From a bacterium (GTDB lineage Bacteria > UBP15 > UBA6099): DNA of 64,000 bases. The stretch covers positions 61,044 to 125,043 of the forward strand of contig DAOSYA010000001.1 in the NCBI GenBank assembly GCA_035380865.1. Reading direction: 5' to 3'. The notes beneath the pieces are model-generated. The model made no database searches. It was not told the DNA's origin and was given only the letters and a program-made list of their open reading frames with translations. Numbering within the stretch: the stretch's first letter is position 1; the number at the start of each line of letters is the position of its first letter. The position numbers and the translations under genes were made by a program. Of the stretch, positions 12,998-57,453 are shown one piece after another.

Positions 12998-13038
12998 CGG
13001 ATTTCGATGATCTGTCTTTAAGCCTGCTGAATAATGGT

Positions 13039-13395: not shown

Positions 13396-13428
13396 GATTA
13401 CTGCTCCTTATAAAAACACGAACATGTG

Positions 13429-27179: not shown

Positions 27180-27246
27180 AACTCCCTGTTTCCTTTCTTT
27201 GGTGATTTTTATAATTCAACAGGACGATTATTCGGTAACTGATTTT

Positions 27247-28092: not shown

Positions 28093-28849
28093 CAGGATTA
28101 GAGAGATACTGAGGCTGGTGGAAGCGGGCGAACTGCCGGCGGAGAAGGCTTACGAAAGCCTCAAAACATTGCCGTTCGAGGACATGGGCTTCGCGCGGCT
28201 GGATCATCACAGGGTTCTTCGGAAAGGCTATCCGGAAGTTATTTATTGCAGCGGTAAAACGAGTTCGCGGATAAAGGCAATAGCCGAATCTTTTGTCGAA
28301 AAGAGAATAAATATGTTGCTTACCCGCGCGGGCGAGGATGTCTATGATGTAGTGCGGGAAATCGAGCCTGAGGCGGAGTACAACAGGGATGCGCGCGCGA
28401 TATGGAAGATTTACAACCCGCTTCCGAAAAGTGTTAAACCGGTTCTTGTGATAACGGCTGGCACGTCTGATATACCGGTGGCCGAGGAAGCGTGCGTTAC
28501 CGCGGAAACCATGGGTTGCGGGGTCAAAAGGCTTTACGATGCCGGTGTAGCCGGAATACACAGGGTTTTTCATAATCACGAAGAAATCGAATCCGCCGGC
28601 TCAATCGTTGTGGTTGCCGGAATGGAAGGCGCGCTGGCGAGCGTGGTGGGGGGGCTGACCGGCAGACCGGTGGTGGCGGTGCCCACGAGCGTGGGTTACG
28701 GGGCTTCTTTCAATGGGCTGTCGGCGTTGCTCGGAATGTTGAATTCCTGCTCGCCCGGAGTTGCGGTAGTGAACATCGACAACGGGTTCGGCGCCGGGTA
28801 TTTTGCGGCTGTTGTGTGCCGGGAGTCGGGTGTCGAGGAGGTTGTTTAG
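28082..28849 (+). CDS. larB: nickel-pincer cofactor biosynthesis protein LarB (PurE-like carboxylase/hydrolase)
   Basis: VLVITAGTSDIPVAEEA, AGMEGALASVVGGL and PVVAVPTSVGYG. Confidence 0.85.
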   Translation: MASDRIREILRLVEAGELPAEKAYESLKTLPFEDMGFARLDHHRVLRKGYPEVIYCSGKTSSRIKAIAESFVEKRINMLLTRAGEDVYDVVREIEPEAEYNRDARAIWKIYNPLPKSVKPVLVITAGTSDIPVAEEACVTAETMGCGVKRLYDAGVAGIHRVFHNHEEIESAGSIVVVAGMEGALASVVGGLTGRPVVAVPTSVGYGASFNGLSALLGMLNSCSPGVAVVNIDNGFGAGYFAAVVCRESGVEEVV

Positions 28850-29685
28850 TGGCAGGCGGTATCCGGATAGTCACAGACAGCACGTCGGACATTAACGCTG
28901 AGCTTGCAAAGAAACTCGATGTCACGGTTGTTCCATTGAACGTGAGATTCGGCAATGAGAATTTCAAAGACAGGATCGATCTGGACAGCAGGAAATTTTT
29001 TCAGTTGCTTGAGGCGGCGGACGAACTGCCCACGACATCGCTGCCTTCGCCCGGGGATGTACAGGCAGTATATGAAGAGCTTGTAAAGAAATACGACTCG
29101 ATTATATCAATTCACATATCAAGCAAAATGAGCGGAACTTTTCAGTCGGCGAGGGCGGCTTCGTTCGAGTTTCCCGACAGAGATATTGTCGTGATAGATT
29201 CGGAATACGTGGCGTCGGCGCTGATGATAATTGTAGTGAGGGCGGCGAGAGAAGTTAAAAAAGGAGCCGACAGGGACAGCGTGCTCGGCAGGATAAAGGA
29301 AGACATTTCAAAGATGGATATTTTCTTTGTGGTCGATTCACTGGATTACCTGCAGCGCGGCGGCAGGATGGGGCTTACAAGCCATGTGATAGGCAGCCTT
29401 TTGAATGTCAAGCCTATTCTCACTGTCAGAGACGGCGTGATAGACACGAAATCAAAAGTCAGAAGCCTGAAAAAAGCATTCAGAAAAGTGGTTGAACTGA
29501 TAGAGGAGAAGCATGAGAAACCGGAGCTTGCGGTTATAAGCCACGGGCGTGCCATGGATGAATCGAAGGAACTGGAGAAAATGCTTCGCTCGGATTATCC
29601 TGATCTCGAGGTGCTCGGTTCGGAGATAGGGCCGGTTATAGGAACGCACACCGGGCCGGGCTGTATTGAAATAGCAATTGTCTGA
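28849..29685 (+). CDS. DegV-family fatty-acid-binding protein
   Basis: IRIVTDSTSDI opening with DegV length and layout. The proposed GTG 28849 shares its G with the last base of the larB stop. Confidence 0.85.
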   Translation: MAGGIRIVTDSTSDINAELAKKLDVTVVPLNVRFGNENFKDRIDLDSRKFFQLLEAADELPTTSLPSPGDVQAVYEELVKKYDSIISIHISSKMSGTFQSARAASFEFPDRDIVVIDSEYVASALMIIVVRAAREVKKGADRDSVLGRIKEDISKMDIFFVVDSLDYLQRGGRMGLTSHVIGSLLNVKPILTVRDGVIDTKSKVRSLKKAFRKVVELIEEKHEKPELAVISHGRAMDESKELEKMLRSDYPDLEVLGSEIGPVIGTHTGPGCIEIAIV

Positions 29686-29695: not shown

Positions 29696-31108
29696 CTAAT
29701 GATTACCCGGAAAAATTATTCTCAGCGATCGCTGCATTATTATCCTGAGCTGAGAGAATGAGTGAAGTTCTCTGAGCAGTCCCAGTACTATCGACGGGCG
29801 CAGGTAGAATCTGAAATGCGCCCTGCGCTGGATTTTTATGAATTCTTCGTGCGGTATCGAGTCGTCGCAATAGCTCAGGCTGTGAATGTACGTTTCGTCG
29901 TAATTGAGGCTCTTCAGTTTTCCTTCAGATCTCAGCCGGTCGAAAAGATCGCTGCCCGGGAAAGGCGTGAAATTGAAAAAATTCGCCCTGTTGAGGTTCA
30001 GCTTCATAGAGAGTTCTATGGTTTTCTTCATGTCGCTGATCGTTTCGCCGGGGAACCCGAGAATGAAAAAACCGGTGACCCTGATTCCGTGTTTTCTCAA
30101 CAGGTCGATTTTTTCCGGAATCATTTCCAGCTTCAATTTCTTCTTCATAAGGTCGAGAACCTGCTGGGAACCGGATTCGATGCCCACGGCGGTTGAATAG
30201 CAGCCCGCGCGTTTCATAGTCGCGACAAGTTCATCGTCGAGGCAGTCCAGCCTCACTCCCGTCGGGCAGGCCCATACGATATTCATGTTTTTTTCTATCA
30301 GTTTCTCGCAGACTTCGATGGCGAAAGCCCTGTCGGCGACGAAATTATCATCCATGATATGGATTTCTTCTATTCCGTATTCTTTGTGCAGAGTTTCAAT
30401 TTCCGAGATGACGCTGCCGGCGTTTCTGTGGCGGACCTTTTTCCCCATCGCGCGGCCCGCGCCGCAGAATGTGCAGGGAAACGGGCAGCCCCTCGACGTG
30501 ATTATCGGCGCGATTCTTTTCTTCATGGTGAAGATGCCATTGGGAAAGAGCGAAAAACGGTTGGGTTCTATAAGGTCCCATGCAGGCGGGTCAAGTGTCG
30601 AGATGTCGCCGATGATTTTCCGGGGGGTATGAAAATATTCTTCCCCGTCTCTGAACACCAGGTTCGGAACGTTTTCGAGTTCGGATTTCGGTGGGTTATC
30701 GTATTTTTCTATCAGGCCGGCAAGCATTGGGAGTGTCTCTTCTCCCTCGCCGGATACTACAAAATCGAAAGAGGGGATTCTCTCGAAAATTTCTTCAGGC
30801 TCGAATATCGCGTGAGGGCCGCCCGCGACAAGAAAGACTTCGGGGAATCTTCTTCTGATTGCTTCAGCGTATTTTGCTGCGGAAGAAAAATAAGGCGTGA
30901 ATATACTGATTCCGACAATGTGGGGCCGCGCGCGCGCGACATTTTGAGCCACCTGTTCGGGCATCAGGCCGTCGCGTGCCGCGTTGCACACAGAAGGCTC
31001 GTGGCCCGCACGCCTCAGGGCGGTCGATATGTATCCAAGTGAATAGCTCGGAATTATAAGGTATGATTCCAGGCCGATGCGCTTTGGATCTATAAGTAAA
31101 ACTTTCAT
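29696..31108 (-). CDS. B12-binding-domain radical SAM protein (class B)
   Basis: N-terminal MKVLLIDPK Rossmann-like domain with LVAGGPHAIF, the core SRGCPFPCTFC, then GIESGSQQVL and GFPGET. Confidence 0.85.
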   Translation of the reverse strand: MKVLLIDPKRIGLESYLIIPSYSLGYISTALRRAGHEPSVCNAARDGLMPEQVAQNVARARPHIVGISIFTPYFSSAAKYAEAIRRRFPEVFLVAGGPHAIFEPEEIFERIPSFDFVVSGEGEETLPMLAGLIEKYDNPPKSELENVPNLVFRDGEEYFHTPRKIIGDISTLDPPAWDLIEPNRFSLFPNGIFTMKKRIAPIITSRGCPFPCTFCGAGRAMGKKVRHRNAGSVISEIETLHKEYGIEEIHIMDDNFVADRAFAIEVCEKLIEKNMNIVWACPTGVRLDCLDDELVATMKRAGCYSTAVGIESGSQQVLDLMKKKLKLEMIPEKIDLLRKHGIRVTGFFILGFPGETISDMKKTIELSMKLNLNRANFFNFTPFPGSDLFDRLRSEGKLKSLNYDETYIHSLSYCDDSIPHEEFIKIQRRAHFRFYLRPSIVLGLLRELHSFSQLRIIMQRSLRIIFPGNH

Positions 31109-31181
31109 CAGAACGCCGTACCTTTTCGTTGCTGGCTAATATTGTAATCTAAAGGTGAAAATAAGAGTAGGCTTATGAAAT

Positions 31182-31961
31182 TCAGACTCTGCGTTTACGA
31201 ATTGCGCCCCTGCACTCGCCGATAAGCATTCTGAATTCATTTATCTCCTTAAACGGATCGAACTTGCTATCGGAATCGGCCCTGAGGAATCTGTAGATCG
31301 AGGGGGTCTGCCCGTATTTATCTGTGAAAAGGCACATTTTGGTGAAGAATTCGGCGTTGGCGGAGAAACCCGAACCGGTGATCAGACTGTCACCCATCGA
31401 GCCGAAAGCTTTTTTGACAACCGAGGCGCGGTACATTTTAAGGAAGTAGGTGTAATCCGTCGTATCCGGAAGCCTGAAACATGTCCTGAGCAGGAAGTTG
31501 GCAGATGCGCTTATCGCCGCTCTGACCGGCGGGAATCCCCGGCACGCGCCACCCTCCATATATCTCGAAGCGGAAATCACATCTGTTCCGTTTCGGAAAA
31601 TCTCCATCATGCGGGCAATCGTTTCGGGGTCGTTCGAGCCGTCGGCTTCGATGAAGACGAGTGGGTCTTCGTCCGCGGCTTTCCCGGCGGCTTCGGCGAA
31701 ACCGGCGCGCAGAACCTCGCCTATGCCTCTGTTTTTTTCGAACTTTATCAGCGAGATATTTTTGTTCAGGGCATGTTCCGAGATGATCGTTGCCGAGCCG
31801 TCCGAGCTGCCGTCGTCAACAGTTATAAAATGGAAATCTTCATCGATGGACCCGCATACCCGCGCAAGCCCGTCTATCACTCTGCTGATACTGACGGATT
31901 CATTGTACACAGGAATTACGAAATAGATCATATCGACCGGGCTGCCGTAAATTTTTATCAA
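31182..31961 (-). CDS. GT2 glycosyltransferase, DPM1-like polyprenyl-phosphate sugar synthase
   Basis: YFVIPVYNES, VDDGSSDGS and FIEADGSNDP. TTG 31961 lies behind GAGGT; ATG 31931 is an alternative start. Confidence 0.8.
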   Translation of the reverse strand: MIKIYGSPVDMIYFVIPVYNESVSISRVIDGLARVCGSIDEDFHFITVDDGSSDGSATIISEHALNKNISLIKFEKNRGIGEVLRAGFAEAAGKAADEDPLVFIEADGSNDPETIARMMEIFRNGTDVISASRYMEGGACRGFPPVRAAISASANFLLRTCFRLPDTTDYTYFLKMYRASVVKKAFGSMGDSLITGSGFSANAEFFTKMCLFTDKYGQTPSIYRFLRADSDSKFDPFKEINEFRMLIGECRGAIRKRRV

Positions 31962-32088
31962 TTATACCTCATTGCAGGCAAAGGTTGCATCATGTCGCCG
32001 CCAAAATGATCCGGATTATCCCTTTTATAAACCTACACATTAATCAAGAACCACGATAAAATACATTCACATCTTTAAATTCCTGGGT

Positions 32089-33459
32089 GTGGGCAGGTAC
32101 ATGGCAGGCTTCATAGCACAATTTTTACCGCTGGTTTTATTTTCAATGCTGGTGATCCACTTTGTGTTCAGGGGCGGAAGGCGCACCGTCCGTGGCTTGA
32201 ACGTGAGGAATATCCTGCTCATTGGCTTTGCGATGCTTTTCTACAGGTCGTTTATAATGGCGATGTGGATGGTGAGCGCGAAAGGGTTCGTGCTTTTTCT
32301 GGCGCTTGTGATGCTGTGGTGCGTGTGGCGTAGAAAAACATGGCGCAGCCGGGCGGCGGGGTTTGTTAAGAATTTTATTTTACTGTTCCCGGTATTCATG
32401 ACTTTCATGGTGCTGGTGTTTTCAGTAACGCTCCAGGACAGGTGCGAGCTTGTTTCGAAACAGCCCGGGGTCCGTGCCGTATTCTCTTTCTGTGATGCAA
32501 GCAACGAGGCTGTAGCGGAAAAATATGCAAGCAATGTGTATCATTGCAGGAATGCGTTTCTGAGCGCGGATCGCAAACTGGTCTACACCGGTTTCGGGGC
32601 GGAGACCAACAACAAAGTGCAGGCGCTTCTCGGGGTCGATCCGGCAACGGGAAAAATCGAGAGACATCTGAGCACTTATACCGTTTTTCGCGGTTACTGC
32701 GATAAAGAAAATTCAGTTTGTGTACACCTTGTTTCCCCGAAAGATACAATAAGGATATGGGATGATGAAAAGCAGGTTGCTATAGATCAGTATGTAACGC
32801 CGAAAGACAGGCCGCGGTTCCTCGCGCCCGATCAGGAAAATGGTGATTTGTATGTGGCGTCGGATGCGGACTGGATTGCGCGTGTTGACCTTAAAGAGAA
32901 AAAAGTCGTCGAGAAGATAAAGGTTCCAACGGGCTCGTTGCTGACGATAGACGACACGCGCGAGAAGATCGTCGGGACGATCAACATGGGGTTCAGGAAC
33001 GTTCTGATGGTAGTGGATAAAAAGAGCCGTGAGGTCGAGAATATCCGCGTGGGGTCGTTGAATATGTGGAAGAGCCTCGGGTTCTTTTTTCATGTCGCCG
33101 CAGATCCCGTGCGGGAGCGGGTTTTTGTTGCGGCGCCGTTCGAGTGCGCGGTTTATATGGTTGATCTGAAAACGAAGAAAACCGTCTGGCGGGTCAAGCT
33201 GCCCATAGGTATAAGGGACCTGACTTATGATACGAAAAGGGATGTGCTTTATGCGAGTAATTTTGTGAACGGTTATGTTTACAAAATAAAGGCGGAGGGG
33301 GATTCGCCGCAGAGGGCCGGCAGGATTTTTCTCGGCAAAAGGCTTCGATATTTTAATTATGAGCCGGACATGGATATTTTTCTTGGAGCATCCGCAAACG
33401 GCTTTTTTATGTATGACCCGGAAGTGGAAGATGCTGTGGCGGAGAACAGCGTTAATTGA
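32089..33459 (+). CDS. membrane protein (about 4 TM) with C-terminal beta-propeller-like domain
   Basis: The hydrophobic N-terminal third is followed by repeated strand-rich units (DLYVASDADWIARVDL, RVFVAAPFECAVYMVDL, VLYASNFVNGYVYKI) reminiscent of YncE/YVTN propellers. Start is GTG 32089 or ATG 32101. Confidence 0.55.
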   Translation: MGRYMAGFIAQFLPLVLFSMLVIHFVFRGGRRTVRGLNVRNILLIGFAMLFYRSFIMAMWMVSAKGFVLFLALVMLWCVWRRKTWRSRAAGFVKNFILLFPVFMTFMVLVFSVTLQDRCELVSKQPGVRAVFSFCDASNEAVAEKYASNVYHCRNAFLSADRKLVYTGFGAETNNKVQALLGVDPATGKIERHLSTYTVFRGYCDKENSVCVHLVSPKDTIRIWDDEKQVAIDQYVTPKDRPRFLAPDQENGDLYVASDADWIARVDLKEKKVVEKIKVPTGSLLTIDDTREKIVGTINMGFRNVLMVVDKKSREVENIRVGSLNMWKSLGFFFHVAADPVRERVFVAAPFECAVYMVDLKTKKTVWRVKLPIGIRDLTYDTKRDVLYASNFVNGYVYKIKAEGDSPQRAGRIFLGKRLRYFNYEPDMDIFLGASANGFFMYDPEVEDAVAENSVN

Positions 33460-33472
33460 AGAGAGGTAAGGG

Positions 33473-35896
33473 TTGAATTTTCTCGGGCTGATATTTTTTG
33501 CTGCTGTTGCGATTTTTGTCCTGTCGTTTTTCTTCAAGGCGATGGCGCATCTCTTCAGGCTGTTCGGATGGATCGCTTCGGATGTTTCGAAGGCCGCGGC
33601 AAAGGTTCTGGAATATCAGCCTGCACCCGAAAAGAAAGAGAAGGCGGAACCGGTCGAAAGCGAAACAGTGGCGGCAGAGGAACCGGCCGGGCAAGAAATC
33701 GCGGCGGTTCCCGCAAGAAAAGCGCAGGTGGCGGAAAAAGAGACTGAAGTTGCGTTTCAGGATACAGAGACTGAAAAGGGCTGTAAAAAATCGGTTAGAG
33801 AAGACGCGAAACGGCGAACGCAGGTTGACGTCAAAGAAAACGAAGACACTTCCCTTGTTGATACGCTCGTGTCGGCTGGAGTTGCTGCCGCAAGGATAGG
33901 GGTGAGAGCGGCTGTAGCGCTGGGTGTGTATTTAAGAAGAATCCCCGCGGCTTTGAAAGCTCCTTTCCCGGTGCGGACGACTCTCGTTTGCGCGAAATTG
34001 TTTTTCTGCTATATGCCGATGGTTATATTTTTCAGGGTTCCCGATGTTTACGGGTACGGGCCGATAATCAATGCGGCGAAATGGCTTTTTGTCGTATACT
34101 GCGGGATTATTCTCCTGATATATTTTCTGCGCGTGCTTATCCCGATTGATCTCGAGGGCATATTCCGTTTTGAATCGGACGGTGAAAATGACAGCATGCC
34201 CGGAATAGTCAAGTTCAGAACCGCATTGTATACGATACTGATACTGGCATTTTCAGCGGTGGTCCTGGTAAAGCTCGTCTGGCTCGGGATTCTGATTCTT
34301 GGTTTTTTCTATTCACTTGTTTATTTCTTTGCTTTTGCGAGGCGTGGCCGGAAAGGTTTCACCTTCGGGAAGTTTCTGGTCTCGTGGATCATATTCGGGG
34401 TTTTTGTAACCATCGCGATCGTTGTTTTCTATAAGGGCGGAATGTTCGAGCCGGTCGCCGGAATGATAGTCGCTCCGATAATTCTCATCACTCTCGTATT
34501 TATTCAAATGCTCTGGGTGATGAGCAGGAAATACGAAGTTTCGGAAGGTTTCAATGAGCTTCCGGTTCGTCGCGTGGCATCATGGCTTAATCTGTTTCTG
34601 ATGCCGCTTGCGAAACTTGCTGTTGCAATTCCTCTTTTCTATTTTGTGATCCTTTTCGCTTCCGTCAACAGTGTCGGGTTTTTACTGGGGCTGATGGCGG
34701 TGACGTTGATAGTCGTTATTCCCGCCAGGATCAGAAAAGGGAAAGCGATGCTGGTGGAAGGGCGGTTGTTTCTCTGGTATATGCTTGTTGTGTGGATGTC
34801 GATTTTTTATATCCAGAGCTATAACAGGATTCCGCCCGCGCAGTCGGTTTGCGACGGTGTTTGCGAGAATGAAAACATCGTCGGTGTCTGGTCTATGAAA
34901 GAATACCGGAAGCATGGTTTTCTAAAAGGCGCTCTTCCTTATGACACAGTGTTCGATCCTGAAGCCGGAGCGGTGTTTATCACTTTTAAAAATCTCAGCG
35001 GCTACGGGTCGATTGTGCGGGTCAAGCCCGGGGACGGCAGGGTGGTGGCGAGAGTAACGCCTGAAAACGACCGTTTCCCCGGAAAGGTGTTTTATCCGGA
35101 GCGGCTTTGCATTGACCGTAAAGCGTGCCGGTTGTATTCAACCACGAAAGCAAGCGGAAACTTTCAGCTTCTCGGCCTGAATTACAGCGCAGGCGGTCTT
35201 GAGCTGAGGGATCGGATACGGTTCGCCGAATATGAAACAACCAACTGTGAAGTGTCTGAAAACGGGGATGTGAACATAATATTTCTTGGTCCGCCCGACA
35301 GCCATCTCAGGTTTGTTGATGCGGCATCGAGGCAGCAGACGGGAGAGGTGCATTTCGGCAAGTTCGGTTATGCCGATTATTTCGCGCTCGATGAGAAACG
35401 CGACAGGATAATTGTTCCGTCGCTGGATCCCGCGAACAGGTTCAGGGTTTATGAAGTAAGCAGGGTCGGTTCCGGGTCCCCGATAGTGAGAAAAAGAATG
35501 GTCGCGTTCAGGTTCGACCTGCCCGGCGGGATGACGGTTCATATCCCGGTTCCGACGCTTGGGATTGCACTTAGCAAATCGAACAACATGTTATATTTCA
35601 CATGTCCTTTTCTCAGGATTATATTCGAAGTCGATGCGGATACTTTTGAAATGAAGCGTTGGAAATTCGCAGGGCGATTCCCGCGCGAGATAGCAGTCAT
35701 GGAAGACAGGGGCATGCTGGTTGTGGCGAATTATGGAAGCGGTACGGTGGATTTCATTGACATTAAAAGCCTGGAACTGCGCAAGCGGCTGAGGGTCGGC
35801 AAGCTCGTGAGAAGCATAGAGATTGAGCCGGAAACAGGACGGGTGTTTATTGCCGCGGCCTGCGGCGTTTTTGAGATCATTCTTCCTGATGAATGA
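33473..35896 (+). CDS. large polytopic membrane protein with E/K/A-rich linker and C-terminal beta-propeller-like domain
   Basis: TTG start behind AGGTAAGG. The order is one TM, a charged low-complexity stretch, roughly ten TM helices, then propeller-like repeats (MLVVANYGSGTVDFIDI, RVFIAAACGVFEI). Confidence 0.55.
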   Translation: MNFLGLIFFAAVAIFVLSFFFKAMAHLFRLFGWIASDVSKAAAKVLEYQPAPEKKEKAEPVESETVAAEEPAGQEIAAVPARKAQVAEKETEVAFQDTETEKGCKKSVREDAKRRTQVDVKENEDTSLVDTLVSAGVAAARIGVRAAVALGVYLRRIPAALKAPFPVRTTLVCAKLFFCYMPMVIFFRVPDVYGYGPIINAAKWLFVVYCGIILLIYFLRVLIPIDLEGIFRFESDGENDSMPGIVKFRTALYTILILAFSAVVLVKLVWLGILILGFFYSLVYFFAFARRGRKGFTFGKFLVSWIIFGVFVTIAIVVFYKGGMFEPVAGMIVAPIILITLVFIQMLWVMSRKYEVSEGFNELPVRRVASWLNLFLMPLAKLAVAIPLFYFVILFASVNSVGFLLGLMAVTLIVVIPARIRKGKAMLVEGRLFLWYMLVVWMSIFYIQSYNRIPPAQSVCDGVCENENIVGVWSMKEYRKHGFLKGALPYDTVFDPEAGAVFITFKNLSGYGSIVRVKPGDGRVVARVTPENDRFPGKVFYPERLCIDRKACRLYSTTKASGNFQLLGLNYSAGGLELRDRIRFAEYETTNCEVSENGDVNIIFLGPPDSHLRFVDAASRQQTGEVHFGKFGYADYFALDEKRDRIIVPSLDPANRFRVYEVSRVGSGSPIVRKRMVAFRFDLPGGMTVHIPVPTLGIALSKSNNMLYFTCPFLRIIFEVDADTFEMKRWKFAGRFPREIAVMEDRGMLVVANYGSGTVDFIDIKSLELRKRLRVGKLVRSIEIEPETGRVFIAAACGVFEIILPDE

Positions 35897-35955
35897 AATA
35901 TGGTTTACAATCCATTCAGATTAATTTTGCTGGGAATGAAAACTGGAGATAAAAA

Positions 35956-37395
35956 TTGGGCAGAATAAAGCTCGCTCTGATAATAGCGCCGCTCGATATA
36001 GATGTCGGAATGAAAGAGAGCCTTCCGCATATCGGGATTGCTTATATTGCGGGCAATGTTGATGCTCAAAAAACGGAAGTAAGGATTTTCGACTGCCCCG
36101 CGCTGAGGATGACGGGTGAGCGGCTGATAAGGGAGTTGAAGCAGTACAGGCCCGATGTGGTCGGCCTGACGGCCATGACTCACCAGATCGATGCGACGGC
36201 GAAAACCGCGGAGTCGGTCAAAAGAGTATTGCCGGACAGCAAAATAATAATCGGCGGTTATCACGTAAGCGCTGTGCCGGTCGAGACGATTCAAAGATAT
36301 CCAGTATTCGACATAGGAGTTGCCGGAGAGGGCGAACTGACACTGAGAGAGCTGACTTCTTTGTTTGCCGATGAGGGGCTCGATGCCGACATATCGGGAA
36401 TCCCCGGGGTGTGTTACAGGGTTAACGGCGAGACTGCGTTTACGGGGATACGCCCTTTTATCGAGGATCTGGATTCACTGTCATACCCGGCTTATCACCT
36501 GATGCCGATGGAACGTTATATCGGCTTTTACAGCATGCTCGCCGTGCCGCGGCGAACTGTGGCGATAGTGACGGGGAGAGGCTGCCCGTATAAATGTATT
36601 TTCTGCTACAAAGCGATGGGAGAGAAATACAGGACGAGAAAAGTGGCCTCGGTGATCGAGGAGCTTAAATGGGATATTTCCGAATATCAGATAAAAGATT
36701 TTGTGATTACTGATGAATCATTCCTGCTCAAGAAACAACGGATATATGAATTCTGCGAAACGATTATAAAAGAGAATATCAACAAGAAGGTTAACTGGAT
36801 ATGCCAGTCGCGGGTTGACCATGCCGACCCCGAGTTGCTGAAGTTGATGAAGACGGCGGGTTGCCGGGTGATTTCGTTCGGAGTCGAAACCGGGAATCAG
36901 CAGATGATGAAAGATATCGGGAAAGCTATTACAAAAGAGCAGGCGATAAACGCTGTGAGATGGGCGCGCGAGGCGGGCATATTCACTGATACCAATTATA
37001 TAATCGGGCATCCGGGCGAAACCCGGGAGACAATCAAAGAGACAATTGATTTTTCATTGAAATTGAATCCGGATGCCGCATCATTCTCGCTTCTTGTGCC
37101 TTTCCCCGGAACGGTCGTGGCCGATATGGCGGCCCGCGGCGAGGGAGGCCTCAAGCAGCTTTCCCATGATTACAGGCTTTTCGGCAAACAGGTCGGCGGC
37201 TCGATGGAGCTTGAAGACATACCGAGAGTCGAGCTTGAGAAATACCAGAGAACCGCATATATGAAGTTCTTTCTCAGGCCGGGTAAAATATTCAATCTGC
37301 TGCGTATCGTGAGCCTGAAGCTGATGTTCAAGATGGCGTGGCACAGTATCGTTTCGCGCGGAAAACCGGGCCGCGGCGATCATGAAACTCAATAG
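35956..37395 (+). CDS. B12-binding-domain radical SAM protein (class B)
   Basis: IIIGGYHVSAV, the core GRGCPYKCIFC, GVETGNQQMM and GHPGET. TTG start behind GGAGA. Confidence 0.85.
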   Translation: MGRIKLALIIAPLDIDVGMKESLPHIGIAYIAGNVDAQKTEVRIFDCPALRMTGERLIRELKQYRPDVVGLTAMTHQIDATAKTAESVKRVLPDSKIIIGGYHVSAVPVETIQRYPVFDIGVAGEGELTLRELTSLFADEGLDADISGIPGVCYRVNGETAFTGIRPFIEDLDSLSYPAYHLMPMERYIGFYSMLAVPRRTVAIVTGRGCPYKCIFCYKAMGEKYRTRKVASVIEELKWDISEYQIKDFVITDESFLLKKQRIYEFCETIIKENINKKVNWICQSRVDHADPELLKLMKTAGCRVISFGVETGNQQMMKDIGKAITKEQAINAVRWAREAGIFTDTNYIIGHPGETRETIKETIDFSLKLNPDAASFSLLVPFPGTVVADMAARGEGGLKQLSHDYRLFGKQVGGSMELEDIPRVELEKYQRTAYMKFFLRPGKIFNLLRIVSLKLMFKMAWHSIVSRGKPGRGDHETQ

Positions 37396-39632
37396 ATAAA
37401 GATTCCGCCGAAAATCGTTTCTGTTTGAAATCCCAGACCGGCGTATTGTTGCCTCATATCAGATATGTACTTTTCTCGCGAGCTTTGAATCTCTATGTTC
37501 GCAAGGAGTTTATATTCATCCGACAGCCATGTCGAGGCCCCGGGGACGGGCATGAAAAATATTCTGCCGGGCGCCGGCTGCGCGTTGTCTGCCGGGATTG
37601 CCCGCACGTTTTCGAAGACGCTTTTTAAATCGCCGACTACCCTGTCGGAATTATTTGCTTCTTCAAAAACTTCGATGGACACTTTCTGTTTTTCAGGCAA
37701 TGTTTCTATGAACTTCTCGGCTGAGATTATCGAAATCTGAGGGTCGGCGTTTTTCAGCGGATCGAGCAGGGACGAAAAGCTGTACATGACCATAATAACA
37801 ATTCCGATAATAATGACAGCCATCGGCATCCCGCGAGCAAGTTTTCCGGTTCTCTGGTATGCGGCCACGAAAATAAAAGCCATCATGAGATAAAGAATTA
37901 TTCCGGCAATATAGCTGTGGCAGAGCTTTACAATTATCTTGTAAATCGGTGGAGACATTTCGAAATCGAAACGGTTAGACAGGAAATACCCGACCAGGTT
38001 TATGGGGTCGATAAAATATGAATCGTGGTTCGCGATGTAGTTGTCGAGAGCGTCGTAGTCGATTTTATAAAATGAAATTTTCTTGCCTCTCGCGATGGGT
38101 TTCGCGAACGGTAGCTCGGGGAACAGGTCAACCGGCCAGACCTGGTTCAGGATAAGATATTTTGCATTGTATTTTTTTATGACTTTTGCCGTCGTGTTTA
38201 TTGTTCCGTAGGGCAGGGGTGCTGTCGGCCTGTCGCATACGAGCTGGGTTGAAAAGAAGGGATATGACATCACGACAGTTCCGGGCTGTGTTTGTTTGCG
38301 GATGTAGTCGCAGGTTGTTCGCAATTCGATCATATCTTCATCTTCGGGTGACTGTAGCAGCCGGAGTGAGTTCATGACGATGAAACCGGAAGTGTCCGAC
38401 AGGATGATGAAAACGGCGATTCCGACCGCAAGCCCGCGTCGTGTTAAAAAAGGAGCATGTTTTTTCGCCCATTCCTCACACTCGACCATGCCCTTGCCCG
38501 CAACAAGAAAAGCTATCGGCAGGATACAAAGCAGATACCTGTCGGAATAAATCGCCATGATTATGTGCATCATTACCTGGAGCACGAGAATGGTGAGAAT
38601 AAGCGCGATCTCGGGGCTGCCCCTGGCGCCGCGCGCGCCGAGCACAAGGAACGGCAACACAAGGAACCCGATGGTTTGAAAAACGCCCGGCATATAAAAT
38701 ATCGATGTCTGCTTTCCCAGAATCGCCAGTTTTACGTTTATCCAGATAACCCGCATGAAGTTGTTGAAGCGTTCTCTTTTCGTGATAACAGGCATTTCCC
38801 ACTCGTTGTAACCTTCATAATTGAAAATCACGCCGAACAGGTCGTATTCGTCGAACCTGTCGATCATGAGGCCGCCGTAGACACGGGATATCCCCTCGAA
38901 CTGCTCTGTGTATGTGGGTTTCCCGAAAACTATCCAGCTTCTGATAAGGAAAGGCAGCACAACGATGCCTGCAACGCCGAAAACTTTTATTATCGGCACT
39001 CCGAAAAATTTCTTTCTCCGGAAAAAAAACATCCATATAAGTGTCGCCGGTATCAGCACAAAGCTGTTTCTTTTGAACAGGAACGCGAGCGCCATGAGCA
39101 GCCCCGCTGTCGCGTAACGCTCGCTGAACAGTGCGGAGACGAAAAGAATATAGAAAATCATCTGCCATGCTTCAGGAAGTCCCGGGTCCATGAGGGTGTA
39201 CAGTCTCAGCAGGCCCGGCGAAAAAAGAGCCAGTAATGCGGCAATAAAAGCAGCCTTTGAGCCGAACAGTTTTTTCCCCGCCCTGAAAACCACCAGCGGC
39301 AGGAGAAAGATGGCGATGAACGTGGGTACGAGAAATGTCCACTGGCTTTCCCTGAAAACGGCGTAGAAAGGAACCAGCGCCACCGAGTAGAGGTTGGCTC
39401 TCTGCGCTGCTGGATGCGGCAGTTTCTGGTCTATGATAGTGTATGAGCGAAGAAGGTTCTCTTTAAAACCTTCCATTCTGTAAAGGCTTCTCGCCATCCC
39501 GGCATACTCGAACGAGTCGCCGTCGTGTGTGGGTGCTCTCGAATGCAGGAAGATGTGGAACAGGCAGAATACAAGAGAGATTACTATCAATATTTTCCAG
39601 AGGGGATCTTTTATTTTCACTCGTTCATCCAT
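37389..39632 (-). CDS. GT-C-fold membrane glycosyltransferase (ArnT/PMT, GT39-like), atypically extended
   Basis: About a dozen N-terminal TM helices with an early loop HDGDSFEYAGMARSL. A soluble domain, two further TM helices and a C-terminal soluble domain follow. The family call comes from architecture only. Confidence 0.55.
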   Translation of the reverse strand: MDERVKIKDPLWKILIVISLVFCLFHIFLHSRAPTHDGDSFEYAGMARSLYRMEGFKENLLRSYTIIDQKLPHPAAQRANLYSVALVPFYAVFRESQWTFLVPTFIAIFLLPLVVFRAGKKLFGSKAAFIAALLALFSPGLLRLYTLMDPGLPEAWQMIFYILFVSALFSERYATAGLLMALAFLFKRNSFVLIPATLIWMFFFRRKKFFGVPIIKVFGVAGIVVLPFLIRSWIVFGKPTYTEQFEGISRVYGGLMIDRFDEYDLFGVIFNYEGYNEWEMPVITKRERFNNFMRVIWINVKLAILGKQTSIFYMPGVFQTIGFLVLPFLVLGARGARGSPEIALILTILVLQVMMHIIMAIYSDRYLLCILPIAFLVAGKGMVECEEWAKKHAPFLTRRGLAVGIAVFIILSDTSGFIVMNSLRLLQSPEDEDMIELRTTCDYIRKQTQPGTVVMSYPFFSTQLVCDRPTAPLPYGTINTTAKVIKKYNAKYLILNQVWPVDLFPELPFAKPIARGKKISFYKIDYDALDNYIANHDSYFIDPINLVGYFLSNRFDFEMSPPIYKIIVKLCHSYIAGIILYLMMAFIFVAAYQRTGKLARGMPMAVIIIGIVIMVMYSFSSLLDPLKNADPQISIISAEKFIETLPEKQKVSIEVFEEANNSDRVVGDLKSVFENVRAIPADNAQPAPGRIFFMPVPGASTWLSDEYKLLANIEIQSSREKYISDMRQQYAGLGFQTETIFGGIFIY

Positions 39633-39775
39633 CAGGATAGCTCTTTTCCACTTATGACATTATAATTTAACAGGTGTCGCATGTGCAATTAGCATTATCT
39701 GTAATAGAAAAAAATATTTTACAGGTACTATAATGTTGGAAAGTTGCTCCTCATGGTGAAGCGGGCTGTCATTTT

Positions 39776-41245
39776 ATGAAGATACTTTTAGTTAATCCGC
39801 CGTTTTCGAGATTGCTCGGCAGGTTTGAAAACACAGAGGTGATAACGCCTATAGGATTGCCGGGAGTCGCCGCATATATTAATAAGCACGGATATGGTGT
39901 TTCGGTATACGATGCGAACAGGCTGCCCGGAAGCAGAACCAGGCTTGGCAAAAAAGCAACGGAGATGGTGGACGGAAACCATAACTATCTCGAGACGCTG
40001 AATTCGGAGCGGCATCCGGTATGGGGAGAGATAAGAGAACGGCTGATTGCGGAAAAACCCGACGTAGTCGGTATATCGGTGCTGAGTTCGGCAAGGGGGT
40101 CTGCTTTCCAGGTTGCGCGTATCTGCAAGGAGGTTGATCCGCGGATACGGGTTGTGTTCGGGGGGTATCACCCGACCGGTTTCCCGGAGGATGTGCTGTC
40201 GAACGAAAATGTTGACGTTGTGGTCAGGGGCGAGGGGGAGCAGACTTTCCTTGAATTGCTGGAGGTGTACAAAAACGAAGGGGACATCGGATCGGTCCTG
40301 GGCATATCTTATTCGGACAACGGGAACGTTATTAATAATCCCGACAGGGCCTTTATTGACGATATGGATTCGCTTCCCTTCACTGCGGATTTTGTGTTCC
40401 AGGGCTTGATAGGGAGAATTCCGATTCAGTATGGCAGGGGATGCCCCTACGGGTGCAAATTCTGCGCTGACAGGGTGGTCTGGAAACGGAAGATTCGATA
40501 CCGATCGGCGGAGAATGTTGTTGAAGAGATAGAGTCGGCTGTCAGAAACCTTGGAGTGAGAGAGTTTACTTTTATCGACGGCACATTTAACGTCAGCCGC
40601 CGGAAGGTGATGGATTTCTGCGAACTTGTTATCGAAAAGAAGCTGGACATAATCTGGGACGCTCTTGTGAGGGCGGATAAACTGGACGATGAAATGCTTG
40701 CGAAGTGCAGGCGCGCGGGATGTGTCCAGATGAATCTCGGTGTTGAGTCAGGTAGCGAACGGGTTATCGATGATCTGAATAAAGCGATTGATCTTTCTAC
40801 GGTGAAGGATGATATCGACAGGATAAAAAAACATGGAATTTCGGTGGTAACGTTTTTCTGTATAGGAATGCCGCCGGAGACAGCTGAAGATTTGAGAAAA
40901 ACAAGGGATCTCATAAGCCGGCTGAATCATGATTTTGTCATATTGAGCGTGTTTACGCCGCTGCCGGGTACCGATTATTATTTGGAACTGCTTGAGAAGA
41001 ATATTATCGGGAAAGGACACGATTTCGATTTGTACGGATTCAAGTCCCCGAGGAATCATTTCGCGTTGAATATTGCAGACGAAGAATTCGAGTACTGGCG
41101 CAATGAAATACTTAAAGCTACGGATGAAGTGAATAAAAAAGGGCGCTTCGCTGTCAAAATGCTGCTAAAGAACTCCGGGTTTTTTATCAGGAATCCCAGG
41201 CAACTTATCAGGAGAGCGAAGCAATTTGCGGGAATGCAGAAGTAA
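39776..41245 (+). CDS. B12-binding-domain radical SAM protein (class B)
   Basis: MKILLVNPPFS, VVFGGYHPTGF, the core GRGCPYGCKFC, GVESGSERVI and GMPPET. Confidence 0.85.
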   Translation: MKILLVNPPFSRLLGRFENTEVITPIGLPGVAAYINKHGYGVSVYDANRLPGSRTRLGKKATEMVDGNHNYLETLNSERHPVWGEIRERLIAEKPDVVGISVLSSARGSAFQVARICKEVDPRIRVVFGGYHPTGFPEDVLSNENVDVVVRGEGEQTFLELLEVYKNEGDIGSVLGISYSDNGNVINNPDRAFIDDMDSLPFTADFVFQGLIGRIPIQYGRGCPYGCKFCADRVVWKRKIRYRSAENVVEEIESAVRNLGVREFTFIDGTFNVSRRKVMDFCELVIEKKLDIIWDALVRADKLDDEMLAKCRRAGCVQMNLGVESGSERVIDDLNKAIDLSTVKDDIDRIKKHGISVVTFFCIGMPPETAEDLRKTRDLISRLNHDFVILSVFTPLPGTDYYLELLEKNIIGKGHDFDLYGFKSPRNHFALNIADEEFEYWRNEILKATDEVNKKGRFAVKMLLKNSGFFIRNPRQLIRRAKQFAGMQK

Positions 41246-41262
41246 GGAAACCGGTAATTAAA

Positions 41263-42567
41263 ATGCATAAGGAAATTGAGATATCAAAAACGGTCAGTCT
41301 CTGCCCGGAATGCGACAGGATAATCGATGCTGAAATCATAGAGCGCAACGGTCGGGTTTTTATCAGAAAAACCTGCCCGGAACACGGCGATTTCGAGCTT
41401 TTGCTTTTTGATGACGCCTCTTTCTACAGGCGGTTGCTGAAAACGACTTCAAAGGTTCCCGAAGAGTTCGATAATTGCGATGTTACCGGATGTTTGTCCT
41501 GCAGGCGGCATATGCCGAGGGTCAAGACTCTTATGATAGACGTTACGGAGCGATGCAATCTGAACTGTACGGCGTGTTTCACGAACACGCATGCGAGGAA
41601 GAGCAGAGACCCCGGAATAGAGGAGATCAGGGAGCGGCTTTCGAAATGGGTTGATAACAAGCCTACTGTTCTGTTGTGCGGGGGTGAGCCGACGGTTCGC
41701 GAAGATCTTGAAGATGTGATCAGGACTATCGATTCGATGGGATTTGTCGTGAAGATGGCGTCGAACGGGATCAGGCTCGCGGAAGCCGATTATGTGAAAA
41801 GGCTCAAAGACGCCGGGCTGGGCTGGGTTCTTTTCCAGCTCGATGGTTTTTCAGACGATATATATATGAAGACGCGCGGAAGGAAGCTTGTGGATATAAA
41901 GAGACAGGCTTTGATCAATCTCGCAGATGCCGGGATAAAAGTCTGCCTTGCTTTTATGGTGGTTCGAGGGGTTAACGATTTCGAGATCGGGCGGGTGGTG
42001 GATTTTGTTATGAACAGTGACAATATCATGCACCTCGGTTGCACGGTGTTGTCGGATGTAGGCCGCGACGGCTTTGCGCCGGAGAATATTACCTCGGCGA
42101 TCCATGTTATGCAGTCGATCGAAAAGGAAACCGAAGGCAGGGTCAGGGTCGAGGATTTCATGCAGACGAGGCTGATTGGCGACAGGCTGTTCAGGCTGAC
42201 CGGCAACCTTGAATTTCAGCAGAAAACATGTTTTCACATGGCGCTTCTTCACAAGAGAAAAGATGGATACATACCGGTGAACAGGTATGCGAGACCGGGA
42301 ACGGCCTTGAGAAACATCGGTGGGTTTGCCGAACTCGGACTGCTTTACGGGTCTTTGAAGCACTGGGATGCGATACAGCTCTCAGGCAGGGTCAAGCTCC
42401 TTACCATAGAGGATTTCCGGCCTCATGACACAATCGATCTGGTGGATGCCAACAGGTGCAATAAGGCATATATGACCGAGGAAGGCTATATTCCTCCCTG
42501 TATATATAACACTAAATACAGGCCTCATTGCTGGCGGGCGAACGATGTGGATGGTGCGCGCGAATGA
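41263..42567 (+). CDS. multi-cluster radical SAM protein with N-terminal Cys knuckle (COG1964-like; family of archaeal tetraether synthase Tes/GDGT-MAS)
   Basis: SLCPECDRIIDAEIIERNGRVFIRKTCPEHG, CDVTGCLSC, the core ERCNLNCTAC and LLCGGEPTVRED. There are further C-terminal Cys (KTCFHM, ANRCNKAY, PPCIY, PHCW). The family assignment is from memory of the motif layout. Confidence 0.7.
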   Translation: MHKEIEISKTVSLCPECDRIIDAEIIERNGRVFIRKTCPEHGDFELLLFDDASFYRRLLKTTSKVPEEFDNCDVTGCLSCRRHMPRVKTLMIDVTERCNLNCTACFTNTHARKSRDPGIEEIRERLSKWVDNKPTVLLCGGEPTVREDLEDVIRTIDSMGFVVKMASNGIRLAEADYVKRLKDAGLGWVLFQLDGFSDDIYMKTRGRKLVDIKRQALINLADAGIKVCLAFMVVRGVNDFEIGRVVDFVMNSDNIMHLGCTVLSDVGRDGFAPENITSAIHVMQSIEKETEGRVRVEDFMQTRLIGDRLFRLTGNLEFQQKTCFHMALLHKRKDGYIPVNRYARPGTALRNIGGFAELGLLYGSLKHWDAIQLSGRVKLLTIEDFRPHDTIDLVDANRCNKAYMTEEGYIPPCIYNTKYRPHCWRANDVDGARE

Positions 42568-44066
42568 AAGTGGTTTTTGTTTATCCCGCGTTCGAAAGCC
42601 TGGCGATAGAGTATCTGGCGGCGGTTGCGCGGGAAAAAAACCATGAAGTCCGCATGGTGTTCGACCCCCGGCTTTTTGCTGATTCATTTGTGCAGATTCC
42701 ATCGCTTGCGCGTTTTTTTTCGATGCGCGACAGGGTGATCGAGGAGGTTGTCGGGCATCAGCCGGACCTCATCGCTTTTTCTGTTGTTACAAATGATTTT
42801 CCATGGTTTAAAGAGATCGGTGCTGAGATTCGAAGGCATACGTCTGCGCCGATCATTGCCGGGAATATTCACGTCACCTCGGTTCCCGAGCAGGTGCTGC
42901 GGCTCGGTTTCGTAGATGCTGTTATCCGGGGAGAGGGAGAAGGCGCTTTCGCGGATATCCTCGATTCGATAGAGGAGACAGGGGAAATAAATCCCGGAAT
43001 AGAGAATGTCGCGACCCTGGACGATGATGGAAACGCAAGGATAAATCCGTTGCGACGGCTTATACAGGATCTTGACACGCTTCCGTTCCCGGACAAGACG
43101 ATATACGACGGCACTTCAATTAAAGCCCGCGATATATACACGATCATGACAACACGGGGTTGCCCGTATACGTGCAGTTTCTGCAATAACAACCTGTTGA
43201 AAAGACTGTATGGAATAAAGGGATATCTCAGGTCGCGAAGCGTCGATAATTCTATTGCCGAGCTGAAGCAGGCGGTTGAAAACTTCGGTCCCGGGCATGT
43301 GAATTTTTACGACGAGGTGTTCGGGACAAATAAAAGGTGGCTTCGCGAGTTCGTTGATAAGTATAAAAAGGAAATCGGGCTTCCCTATATCGCCTGCACG
43401 AACCCGAATATTGTTGACGAAGAATATGCGGATCTGCTCGCGGAATCCGGTTGCGGGAAACTCGATATGGGAGTACAGACGATCAACCCGGAAAAGAGAA
43501 GACATATATATCACAGGCGTGAAACCAACGAGCAGATCAGGTATGCCATCGATACGCTCAAGTCGCGCGGAATAAAAGTCGCGGCTGAAAATATAACGAA
43601 CTTCCCGACGGAGACCGAAGAGAACCTGCTCGAAATGGCGAGATTCTACAACGAAACAAGGCCGAGCGCGCTGAAGGTATTCTGGCTCAGGTATTATCCG
43701 GGGACGGAGATAGTTGATATTGCCGTGGAAAAGGGAGTGCTGACCCGCGAGGATGTCGAACGGGTGAATCAGGGCGAGGATCTCGGCTCGGTTACGATAG
43801 GCGTCGGGACACCCGTGTTACAGAGGAAGTTCTATCCGATGTTCGCGCTTACCCAGGTTCTTCCAGGGGGAATGGTTGAGCTGATGCTCGACCGGAAATT
43901 ATACAGATATTTTCCCGCCTCGATCATGCCGAAGATATCATACACTCTGTACAGGCTGCTGACCCGCAGGTCGCCGGAGGAGGAAATAATGATGTATCAG
44001 CATGCAAGGCGGTATGTATTTTATCTGAAAAAATGGGCGTCGGGGATAAAGAAAAGGAATAAATAG
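42564..44066 (+). CDS. B12-binding-domain radical SAM protein (class B)
   Basis: The start (MKVVFVYPAF) overlaps the upstream stop as ATGA. Motifs are IIAGNIHVTSV, the core TRGCPYTCSFC and GVQTINPEKR. Confidence 0.85.
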   Translation: MKVVFVYPAFESLAIEYLAAVAREKNHEVRMVFDPRLFADSFVQIPSLARFFSMRDRVIEEVVGHQPDLIAFSVVTNDFPWFKEIGAEIRRHTSAPIIAGNIHVTSVPEQVLRLGFVDAVIRGEGEGAFADILDSIEETGEINPGIENVATLDDDGNARINPLRRLIQDLDTLPFPDKTIYDGTSIKARDIYTIMTTRGCPYTCSFCNNNLLKRLYGIKGYLRSRSVDNSIAELKQAVENFGPGHVNFYDEVFGTNKRWLREFVDKYKKEIGLPYIACTNPNIVDEEYADLLAESGCGKLDMGVQTINPEKRRHIYHRRETNEQIRYAIDTLKSRGIKVAAENITNFPTETEENLLEMARFYNETRPSALKVFWLRYYPGTEIVDIAVEKGVLTREDVERVNQGEDLGSVTIGVGTPVLQRKFYPMFALTQVLPGGMVELMLDRKLYRYFPASIMPKISYTLYRLLTRRSPEEEIMMYQHARRYVFYLKKWASGIKKRNK

Positions 44067-44090: not shown

Positions 44091-44120
44091 AAAGGCCTCC
44101 TGTTTTCAGGAGGCCTTTTT
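44091..44120. terminator. bidirectional rho-independent terminator between the rSAM operon and hppA
   Basis: aaaggcctcctg (44091-44102) pairs with caggaggccttt (44107-44118). An A-run lies upstream and a T-run downstream. Confidence 0.75.
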
Positions 44121-49538: not shown

Positions 49539-49598
49539 TGTTAATTTATTATATCAGGAAATCCATCGTCGGCAATGTCGCGGCAGGCCGGGAGGAGA

Positions 49599-50333: not shown

Positions 50334-50394
50334 AAATCATCCCTCAAGGGAATTGTTAATCAATTAAACGGAAGAGTAAACACTTTCACTAATA

Positions 50395-57400: not shown

Positions 57401-57453
57401 CAGCGTGTTTAATCGACGCAACTATAGTATAGGTCTGACACGATAAAAAGACG

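Follow-up and report, generated by a model that had tools for sequence, protein, structure and literature searches.

A radical SAM gene cluster with a Tes-family enzyme in a UBP15 bacterium and its possible role in membrane lipid tailoring

Organisation of the locus

The DNA considered here is a 64-kb stretch of contig DAOSYA010000001.1 (assembly GCA_035380865.1) from a bacterium of the UBP15 lineage, referred to throughout as the window. At positions 29696-44066 it carries an island of nine genes, labelled A to I in their order along the sequence. Five encode radical S-adenosylmethionine (SAM) enzymes, two encode glycosyltransferases and two encode membrane proteins with a modelled or probable beta-propeller. 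The core radical SAM protein, H, is by predicted fold and by sequence a member of the Tes/GDGT-MAS (tetraether lipid synthase, COG1964) family, and the nine genes are one functional unit, found complete also in another metagenome. The lineage that hosts this unit is uncultured and probably anaerobic. It is tentatively proposed that its products build a membrane-spanning or macrocyclic lipid and modify it.

On the reverse strand lie A (29696..31108), a B12-binding radical SAM protein of 470 amino acids (aa), and, 73 nucleotides before it, B (31182..31961), a family 2 glycosyltransferase (GT2) of 259 aa resembling polyprenyl-phosphate sugar synthases. Transcribed in the opposite direction are C (32089..33459), a 456-aa membrane protein with about four N-terminal transmembrane segments and a probable periplasmic beta-propeller, and, after a gap of 13 nucleotides, D (33473..35896), a polytopic membrane protein of 807 aa with a predicted C-terminal seven-bladed propeller. 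These are followed by E (35956..37395), a second B12-binding radical SAM protein (479 aa), whose gene converges on and overlaps by 7 nucleotides that of F (37389..39632, reverse strand), a 747-aa glycosyltransferase of the GT-C fold, similar to PMT_2 and ArnT proteins. The last three genes, all on the forward strand, encode G (39776..41245; B12-binding radical SAM, 489 aa), H (41263..42567; 434 aa) and I (42564..44066; divergent B12-binding radical SAM, 500 aa). The open reading frame of I opens with a TTG at 42528, but the more likely start is the ATG at 42564, within an ATGA overlap with the stop codon of H. All nine reading frames, their strands, the gaps, the overlap and the terminator described below lie where the original prediction had placed them, and the five CxxxCxxC radical SAM cores are intact and read exactly as it had quoted them.

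Two divergent intergenic regions contain promoter-like sequences. Between B and C (31962..32088) there is a sigma-70-like match at 32034-32062 on the forward strand, and between F and G (39633..39775) there are promoter-like sites on both strands, with 10/12 matches at 39687-39659 (-) and 39705-39734 (+). A hairpin at 44091..44118, between I (+) and hppA (-), resembles a bidirectional intrinsic terminator; with a 12-bp stem containing 7 GC pairs, and runs of A and T on its sides, it is the strongest terminator-like site of the region. Scanning the island against Rfam revealed no riboswitch, including the cobalamin riboswitch, and no other RNA element. The base composition of the island equals that of its flanks, and there is therefore no hint of recent foreign origin. 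Upstream lies a gene for a DegV protein (28816-29685, +) and downstream hppA, encoding an H+-PPase (44150-46330, -). DegV, of a fatty-acid-binding family, abuts the island; it probably lies outside the nine-gene unit, because it is missing at the same position in a syntenic relative (L002).

The Tes-family enzyme H

The product of 41263-42567 had been recognised as a COG1964-type protein in the original prediction, which was right as to the family but missed that this is the family of Tes/GDGT-MAS. H contains a Radical_SAM domain (86.5 bits) and an N-terminal Zn_ribbon_HMPTM domain (67.2 bits), both above the Pfam gathering cutoffs. Its best sequence match in the PDB is 7TOL, the GDGT-MAS/Tes of M. 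jannaschii (MJ0619), with an E value of 3.9e-55 and approximately 27% identity. An AlphaFold model of H, made from 113 homologues, has a pLDDT of 93 and aligns over its full length with 7TOM/7TOL (TMq 0.78, about 485 columns). In a Foldseek search, the same structures were matched with an E value of 1e-36, the next-best fold, MoaA, reaching a TMq of only 0.46. H shares both the four-domain architecture and the fold of the archaeal enzyme.

Archaeal Tes couples two unactivated tail carbons via a sulfur adduct on its C-terminal cluster (PMC9433317), and its four metal sites can all be traced in H. The rubredoxin-like mononuclear Fe site (CX2C...CX2H) C14/C17/C38/H41 aligns with Tes residues C9, C12, C33 and H36, identified as ligands in PMC9433317, and the next two sites likewise correspond to published Tes ligands. 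The site of the N-terminal [4Fe-4S] cluster, C72/C77/C80/H83, is kept in 16/16 members of the clade to which H belongs and in 95/95 other family members, although its spacing is CX4CX2CX2H in H and CX3CX2CX2H in 7TOL. The radical SAM cluster motif C98/C102/C105 (CX3CX2C) is invariant across 113 family members. Two cysteines of the C-terminal cluster, C399 and C413, are conserved, while C323 is specific to the clade and may supply the third. The active-site Tyr459 of Tes corresponds to Y403 of H, which is present in 16/16 clade members; in other family members the position is mostly Val (56) or Tyr (24). The metal-site cysteines are found throughout COG1964 and hence fail to distinguish Tes from TrsS; only positions 383, 403 and 323 discriminate among its members. 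Conservation of the metal sites alone is therefore no proof of Tes function.

Archaeal Tes is accompanied by B12-dependent radical SAM enzymes, which subsequently act on the coupled chains as cyclases (Grs), methylases (Gmm, Cgm, Pgm) or a desaturase (Ted) (PMC13459092, PMC11214058, 10.1101/2025.10.20.683597). Several cobalamin-dependent radical SAM genes occur with a Tes-type enzyme, and they are often clustered with further genes for tetraether lipids (PMC11214058; 10.1101/2025.10.20.683597). The statement that the island matches no characterised pathway was too strong, since H is a full-length homologue of Tes/GDGT-MAS and the association of Tes with B12-dependent radical SAM enzymes is the archaeal pattern.

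Other bacterial radical SAM enzymes are likewise candidates for tail-to-tail coupling. Homologues of Tes in Acidobacteria and Planctomycetes have been proposed to make glycerol dialkyl glycerol tetraethers of the branched type (brGDGTs) or spanning lipids, a role as yet unconfirmed (PMC8941075, PMC11868695, PMC11214058, PMC13459092). The acidobacterial proteins are reported to be 40-42% identical to archaeal Tes, and are thus closer to it than H is. The confirmed bacterial enzyme is Mss, which is reportedly not detected by BLAST with Tes (PMC13159169), and bacterial gms genes have been reported to cluster with tes or mss (PMC11214058). H is unlikely to be of the Mss type, because Tes is reported to find no homologue in the genomes of T. 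maritima and T. ethanolicus, the sources of Mss (PMC13159169), whereas H matches Tes strongly.

Conservation of the gene set

Among the relatives of H there is a tight set of 15 proteins at 55-66% identity, followed by a sharp drop to 37% or less. In the GTDB species representatives, the H clade is found in eight genomes, with one further truncated match labelled Acidobacteriota. The concern that the neighbourhood might not be conserved beyond a single genome is dispelled by a locus from another metagenome (L086), where all nine orthologues are present at 38-64% identity, arranged as H-I-A-B(-)-C-D-E-F(-)-G with hppA after them; seven orthologues, C through I, lie together on another JGI contig. 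Chance adjacency is ruled out, because the nine genes stay together through rearrangement at approximately 50% identity.

The genes had been presented as equal partners in the original prediction, and in this respect the comparison divides them. I lies directly downstream of H wherever the sequence runs past an H orthologue of the clade, with A adjacent or nearby, and true orthologues of I (at least 58% identity) adjoin H in every case seen. Orthologues of A, at 59-67% identity, adjoin H-I or the GT2 gene in L002, L003, L007, L012 and L086; the sources of L002, L007 and L086 are an anaerobic digester, groundwater and sediment. B orthologues are found at 38-58% identity in L002, L003 and L086, where, as in the window, A and B are neighbours. 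Of the remaining genes, C has orthologues of 50-56% identity in L085, L086 and L087, in each case directly preceding D; E has an orthologue of 58% identity in L086/L087 and one of 52% beside H in L013, and G one of 57% in L086/L087. The unit therefore consists of an invariant core (H, I and A), to which B is frequently joined, and the block C-G, which is optional and in which E and G are accessory.

Individual loci illustrate this modular structure. L002/L011 shares the synteny of the window, from ornithine decarboxylase to ScpAB and LarEB, the island, hppA and an EPSP-synthase-family gene; its island, however, comprises only A, B, H and I, the 9-kb block of C-G being absent. In one metagenome-assembled genome, H-I (L006) and a set of GT-C, C and D genes (L085) are on separate contigs. 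In L012, H-I-A forms a stand-alone operon between genes for a hybrid-cluster protein and a catalase; B is absent from its surroundings and no glycosyltransferase gene was found within 10 kb. The more diverged L001 has H-I-A beside its own pair of membrane-anchored propeller proteins of 483 and 581 aa, which resemble C and D weakly, together with a GT2 and polytopic membrane proteins. Apparent fusions of H and I in L019 and L020 (reading frames of 1029 and 907 aa) were rejected as upstream read-through in high-GC DNA.

The B12-dependent radical SAM proteins

A, E, G and I each combine a B12-binding domain (73.9, 79.7, 69.9 and 64.4 bits, respectively) with a Radical_SAM domain (89.9, 93.8, 89.9 and 81.7 bits). 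Both domains exceed the Pfam gathering cutoffs in every case and CX3CX2C is intact, which is the architecture of class B radical SAM enzymes. The same two-domain architecture is shared by Grs, Gmm, Cgm, Pgm and Ted, a likeness drawn from architecture and published descriptions. Identity among A, E and G is 31-33%, while I is only 23-27% identical to these three. None of the four reaches a named NCBIfam equivalog, the best scores being 88-210 bits against cutoffs of 481-750 and in all cases under half of the cutoff, and these sub-threshold matches point in several directions.

One of these is cofactor chemistry, in which BchE- or HemN-like enzymes acting on tetrapyrroles or pterins, or the old 'HMPT methyltransferase', would sit beside a locus for envelope glycosylation to which they are unrelated. 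The highest-scoring NCBIfam model for A, E and G is BchE (197-210 bits; 205 for A and 210 for E), JGI labels relatives of these proteins 'anaerobic Mg-protoporphyrin IX monomethyl ester cyclase', and the Pfam name Zn_ribbon_HMPTM reflects an earlier annotation of the same kind. Nevertheless, the BchE scores are under half of the cutoff of 481, and no radical SAM protein of the island reaches the cutoffs of BchE, HemN or HpnJ, contrary to the possibility, entertained at the outset, that the genes might separate into BchE/HemN-type cofactor enzymes and an ordinary glycan locus. MJ0619, once regarded as an HMPT methyltransferase, has been structurally and biochemically proven to be Tes/GDGT-MAS (PMC9433317). 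The radical SAM genes stay linked to the membrane protein and glycosyltransferase genes after rearrangement, and there are no tetrapyrrole or pterin genes nearby. This explanation is highly improbable.

Modification of hopanoids or other isoprenoid lipids is another possibility, the substrate being a polycyclic or polyprenyl lipid on which the B12-dependent enzymes would act as HpnJ, HpnP or HpnR, and the GT2 as HpnI. The HpnJ model gives 208 bits for E and the HpnR model 87-119 bits for A, E and G, and the pairing of a GT2 with a radical SAM enzyme dependent on B12 recalls HpnI/HpnJ (PMC13459092). These scores are far under the cutoffs of 578 and 650, however, and the hopanoid pathway does not involve a Tes-like enzyme. 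When the whole 64-kb window was scanned, no hopanoid or tetrapyrrole genes were found, neither squalene-hopene cyclase nor HpnH nor any other hpn gene being present. A hopanoid-type role is very unlikely.

A third direction is the maturation of a ribosomally synthesised and post-translationally modified peptide (RiPP) or other peptide by ApyD-like B12-dependent C-methyltransferases and a further radical SAM enzyme. ApyD ranks first to third in NCBIfam for the four B12-binding proteins, at 109-192 bits, but these values are far under its cutoff of 750. The intergenic gaps of 17-143 nucleotides leave no room for a precursor gene, the island encodes no protease, RiPP recognition element or exporter, and COG1964 has no known peptide substrate. 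Peptide maturation is the least probable of the explanations considered.

Glycosyltransferases and propeller proteins

B matches Pfam Glycos_transf_2 with 84.3 bits, and its nearest solved structures are ArnC, the dolichyl-phosphate mannose synthase (DPMS) of Pyrococcus, and GtrB. On the NCBIfam model of ArnC it scores 70.6 bits, far under the cutoff of 529, and no hydrophobic or transmembrane segment was found in its sequence, so that B differs from ArnC and GtrB in lacking a membrane anchor. F matches PMT_2 with 45.6 bits (cutoff 26.1) and has at least 11 hydrophobic segments. After the first of these, in the first loop, lies an acidic DGDSFEY motif (D37-G-D39), which is kept in the 51%-identical orthologue of L086. 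A PDB sequence search with F yielded no match. The earlier calls of a DPM1-like GT2 and a GT-C-like protein agree with the Glycos_transf_2 and PMT_2 assignments. More generally, the B12-binding, Radical_SAM, GT2 and PMT_2 assignments of the island were all borne out by Pfam matches above gathering cutoffs when each protein was searched. B and F together resemble the ArnC/ArnT and Dpm1/PMT relays, although here the relay genes are optional relative to the radical SAM core.

C has hydrophobic segments within residues 4-117 and a weak match to a YncE seven-blade profile (E 1.5e-6). D has about nine hydrophobic segments and a C-terminal all-beta domain, for which AlphaFold predicts a seven-bladed propeller of approximately 28 strands (residues 465-807, pLDDT 75-92); its top Foldseek match is E. 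coli YncE (TM-score 0.78, E 1.5e-14). The transmembrane domain of the D model is of low confidence and was left uninterpreted. Pfam gave only sub-threshold propeller hints for both proteins. Of the two propeller-bearing membrane proteins originally predicted, D is therefore upheld by a modelled fold, and for C weak profile matches hint at a propeller. The family of D is very small: a search of 5.8e9 proteins gave 8 clusters, and one of 1.84e9 gave about 13 representatives of nearly full length. Loops rich in Arg and Lys precede the last transmembrane segment of C and D (in C, at around residues 27-39 and 80-93). By the positive-inside rule, these loops suggest that both propellers face the periplasm, the same side as GT-C catalysis.

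The wider COG1964 family

The genomic context of COG1964 homologues was surveyed in 84 fetched loci. In Clostridia, Oscillospiraceae and Dehalococcoidia, the genes are of the TrsS type and occur as paralogue pairs with no B12-dependent radical SAM gene nearby. In contrast, the clade of the window and its deeper relatives, which come from Myxococcales, 'Proteobacteria', Omnitrophota, Planctomycetia and some DPANN archaea, have one to six such genes alongside. A neighbour-joining tree of 141 COG1964 proteins from automatically extracted reading frames (p-distance, 30 bootstrap replicates) is rough and was read at its strongly supported nodes only. H falls in a clade of 24 tips with 100% support. 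B12-dependent radical SAM neighbours are present in 19 of the 21 clade members whose context could be scored, the two exceptions being on contigs of about 2 kb, whereas 92 proteins without such neighbours, including those named TrsS and Tes, lie outside the clade.

TrsS, a radical SAM (seleno)protein, is known by name, with no function assigned (PMC13188914), and for this reason it was dropped as a functional lead. H resembles TrsS in family and in length (approximately 440 aa). It differs in being encoded by a single COG1964 gene flanked by B12-dependent radical SAM genes, and in having Glu and Tyr at two positions where TrsS-type proteins keep Met and have mostly Val, the latter being the position of Tyr459. 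In L023-L077, TrsS-type genes are nearly always found as two adjacent, diverged paralogues of about 450 and 425 aa, which would constitute a distinct two-enzyme system, apparently uncharacterised.

A distant locus, L004/L005 (ENA ERZ24794656, 2386-13225), in which the identity to H is 37%, contains two COG1964 paralogues. These flank genes for a SAM-methyltransferase, two B12-dependent radical SAM proteins, two polytopic proteins resembling GT-C, of which one matches PMT_2 weakly, a PIN-domain protein and a transposase. Both paralogues (P0017/P0018) have lost the three cysteines of the N-terminal cluster while retaining His83.

A possible pathway

From the domain and fold assignments, the conserved metal sites and the linkage of the genes, a substrate, products, catalytic roles and an order of steps can be proposed. 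By analogy with Tes, H would abstract hydrogen from unactivated carbons of two lipid tails, parking the first radical on its C-terminal Fe-S cluster before forming a C-C bond, which would yield a lipid that either spans the membrane (bolaform) or is macrocyclic. C-methylation, ring closure or desaturation of these alkyl chains would fall to I and A, in the manner of Grs, Gmm, Cgm/Pgm and Ted, and E and G would add further radical modifications where they are present. At the cytoplasmic face, B might produce a polyprenyl-phosphate sugar or else itself glycosylate the lipid, and F might transfer the sugar on the periplasmic side, where one conceivable acceptor is the outward-facing head of a spanning lipid, with C and D as membrane-anchored periplasmic propellers. 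The H-I-A core fits the archaeal pattern of Tes with B12-dependent modifying enzymes. Because H-I-A exists in L012 without a glycosyltransferase, its substrate is more likely to be a bulk one, such as a membrane lipid. With some reserve, we put forward as a real possibility the synthesis and tailoring by this cluster of a membrane-spanning or macrocyclic lipid, which is then glycosylated via the GT2 and the GT-C protein.

The principal alternative is radical tailoring of a lipid-linked glycan or glycoconjugate. Here too B would make a polyprenyl-phosphate sugar, but the B12-dependent enzymes would C-methylate, deoxygenate or ring-contract sugars (compare GenK, AprD4 and HpnJ), and F, with C and D as partners, would move the modified sugar to a periplasmic envelope acceptor. 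H would catalyse some other radical step on the carrier or the glycan in place of tail-to-tail coupling. An ArnC/DPMS-type GT2 together with a GT-C protein is the classic lipid-carrier relay, and the repeated adjacency of A and B described above is in keeping with such a role. I has the sugar-modifying AprD4 as its best PDB match, and its more distant relatives (36-54% identity) lie in glycan-type clusters with GT2, GT4, PMT_2- or TMEM260-type GT-C, DegT and Wzt ABC transporter genes and no COG1964 gene. On the other hand, I orthologues of at least 58% identity are beside H wherever seen, the match of H to the lipid-binding structure of Tes covers the whole protein, and the H-I-A operon of L012 stands apart from any glycosyltransferase. 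Nor does the island itself contain NDP-sugar, flippase or polymerase genes, as judged from Pfam and NCBIfam scans. The absence of NDP-sugar genes had been noted originally and holds within the island, but a sugar-1-phosphate nucleotidyltransferase gene is found 11 kb downstream (55393-56343, -). Glycan tailoring is somewhat unlikely, though it deserves serious consideration.

The affinities of I with sugar-modifying systems, a point on which it departs from the archaeal chain-modifying enzymes, also count against the spanning-lipid proposal, as do several properties of H and of the window. Judged from its sequence, H is not an orthologue of archaeal Tes and belongs to neither of the curated families: it scores 209 bits on the NCBIfam model of Tes (NF045702; cutoff 450), aligning over residues 9-303 only, and 219 bits on that of TrsS (NF045646; cutoff 490), which is its best NCBIfam match. 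The NCBI-named Tes and TrsS proteins fall elsewhere in the tree. The C-terminal domain of H is without the insert of approximately 90 aa found in Tes. The labile Met439 ligand of Tes is replaced by Glu (E383) in 16/16 clade members, and also in P0017/P0018, while it is Met in 94/95 other COG1964 proteins; Met439 and Tyr459 are both reported to be invariant in 1000 archaeal Tes homologues (PMC9433317). The fold does not fix the substrate, as roles in COG1964 are known for Tes alone. Finally, no ether-lipid (ger/plsA, elb), mss or isoprenoid-lipid gene was found in the 64-kb window. As regards position 383, the M439A variant of Tes keeps its activity (PMC9433317), and Glu therefore does not exclude Tes-like chemistry.

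A more specific version of the spanning-lipid proposal can also be formulated. In this version fatty-acid-based spanning lipids would be made by a Tes-type enzyme that has been remodelled, its C-terminal cluster being ligated by Glu, and that invariably has a B12-dependent radical SAM partner; I, A, E and G would be the bacterial methylases or cyclases acting on the alkyl chains of brGDGT-like lipids, and glycosylation of the outward head would fall to the products of the GT2, GT-C and propeller genes. As a complete scheme this is unlikely to hold, albeit well worth stating. The original suggestion, which was that the machinery serves to tailor a lipid of the envelope or a lipid-linked glycan, was right in direction, and the findings that were to speak against it did not materialise, but it is only partly supported.

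Neighbouring genes and related loci

Further radical SAM genes are found elsewhere in the window. At 56480-60621 (+), adjoining the sugar-1-phosphate nucleotidyltransferase gene, is a second pair, encoding a 306-aa HxsC4/MoaA-like protein and a 1055-aa fusion of a SAM-methyltransferase domain, a B12-dependent radical SAM-like middle region and an HxsC-like radical SAM domain. Similar fusions of radical SAM and methyltransferase domains occur in another metagenome contig near an I-family B12-dependent enzyme, a PMT_2 GT-C protein and a GT2. The L089 locus (Candidatus Abyssobacteria SURF_5, 1-13566) contains five GT2 and two GT4 genes, two B12-dependent radical SAM genes and a further radical SAM gene, a methyltransferase gene and one for a GT-C-like protein with TMEM260_N and tetratricopeptide repeat (TPR) regions. 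This cluster suggests that radical SAM tailoring takes place within polysaccharide or glycoconjugate loci of uncultured anaerobes.

Directly upstream of degV are two genes of the nickel-pincer cofactor, for LarB (280.2 bits) and LarE (274.6 bits), at 27199-28849 (+), with no LarA or LarC adjoining; a NicO-type nickel transporter is encoded 25 kb from LarE/LarB (53618-55300, -). Beyond hppA and an EPSP-synthase-family gene, the region 48177-53571 (-) encodes a Maf/MptE-like protein (of the PseD type, associated with flagellin glycosylation), a TPR protein and a GH38 alpha-mannosidase. No link between these last three genes and the island was found.

Implications

The kinds of component found here (the Tes family, class B radical SAM enzymes, GT2, GT-C and propeller proteins) are all known, and the idea that homologues of Tes in bacteria cluster with other lipid radical SAM genes has already been published. 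What is new is a Glu-for-Met COG1964 clade that is always paired with B12-dependent radical SAM enzymes, a nine-gene set that includes a GT2/GT-C relay, and a near-orphan family of propeller proteins. A combination of these nine genes, with GT2, GT-C and membrane-anchored propellers, was not found described in the literature.

Bacterial branched tetraethers underpin widely used proxies for past temperature and pH, yet few of their anaerobic producers, or of the enzymes for coupling, methylating and cyclising their chains, are known (PMC8941075, PMC11868695, PMC13274423). Should glycan tailoring prove to be the function of the unit, it would represent an undescribed form of radical sugar or glycan modification, apparently widespread in uncultured anaerobes. 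For the question of how bacteria make spanning lipids, the locus offers a compact, conserved gene set with a three-gene radical SAM core and a clade signature, Glu in place of Met439. By linking a GT2/GT-C relay and very rare membrane-anchored propeller proteins with a Tes-type enzyme, it hints at a way in which the outer end of a spanning lipid may be decorated.

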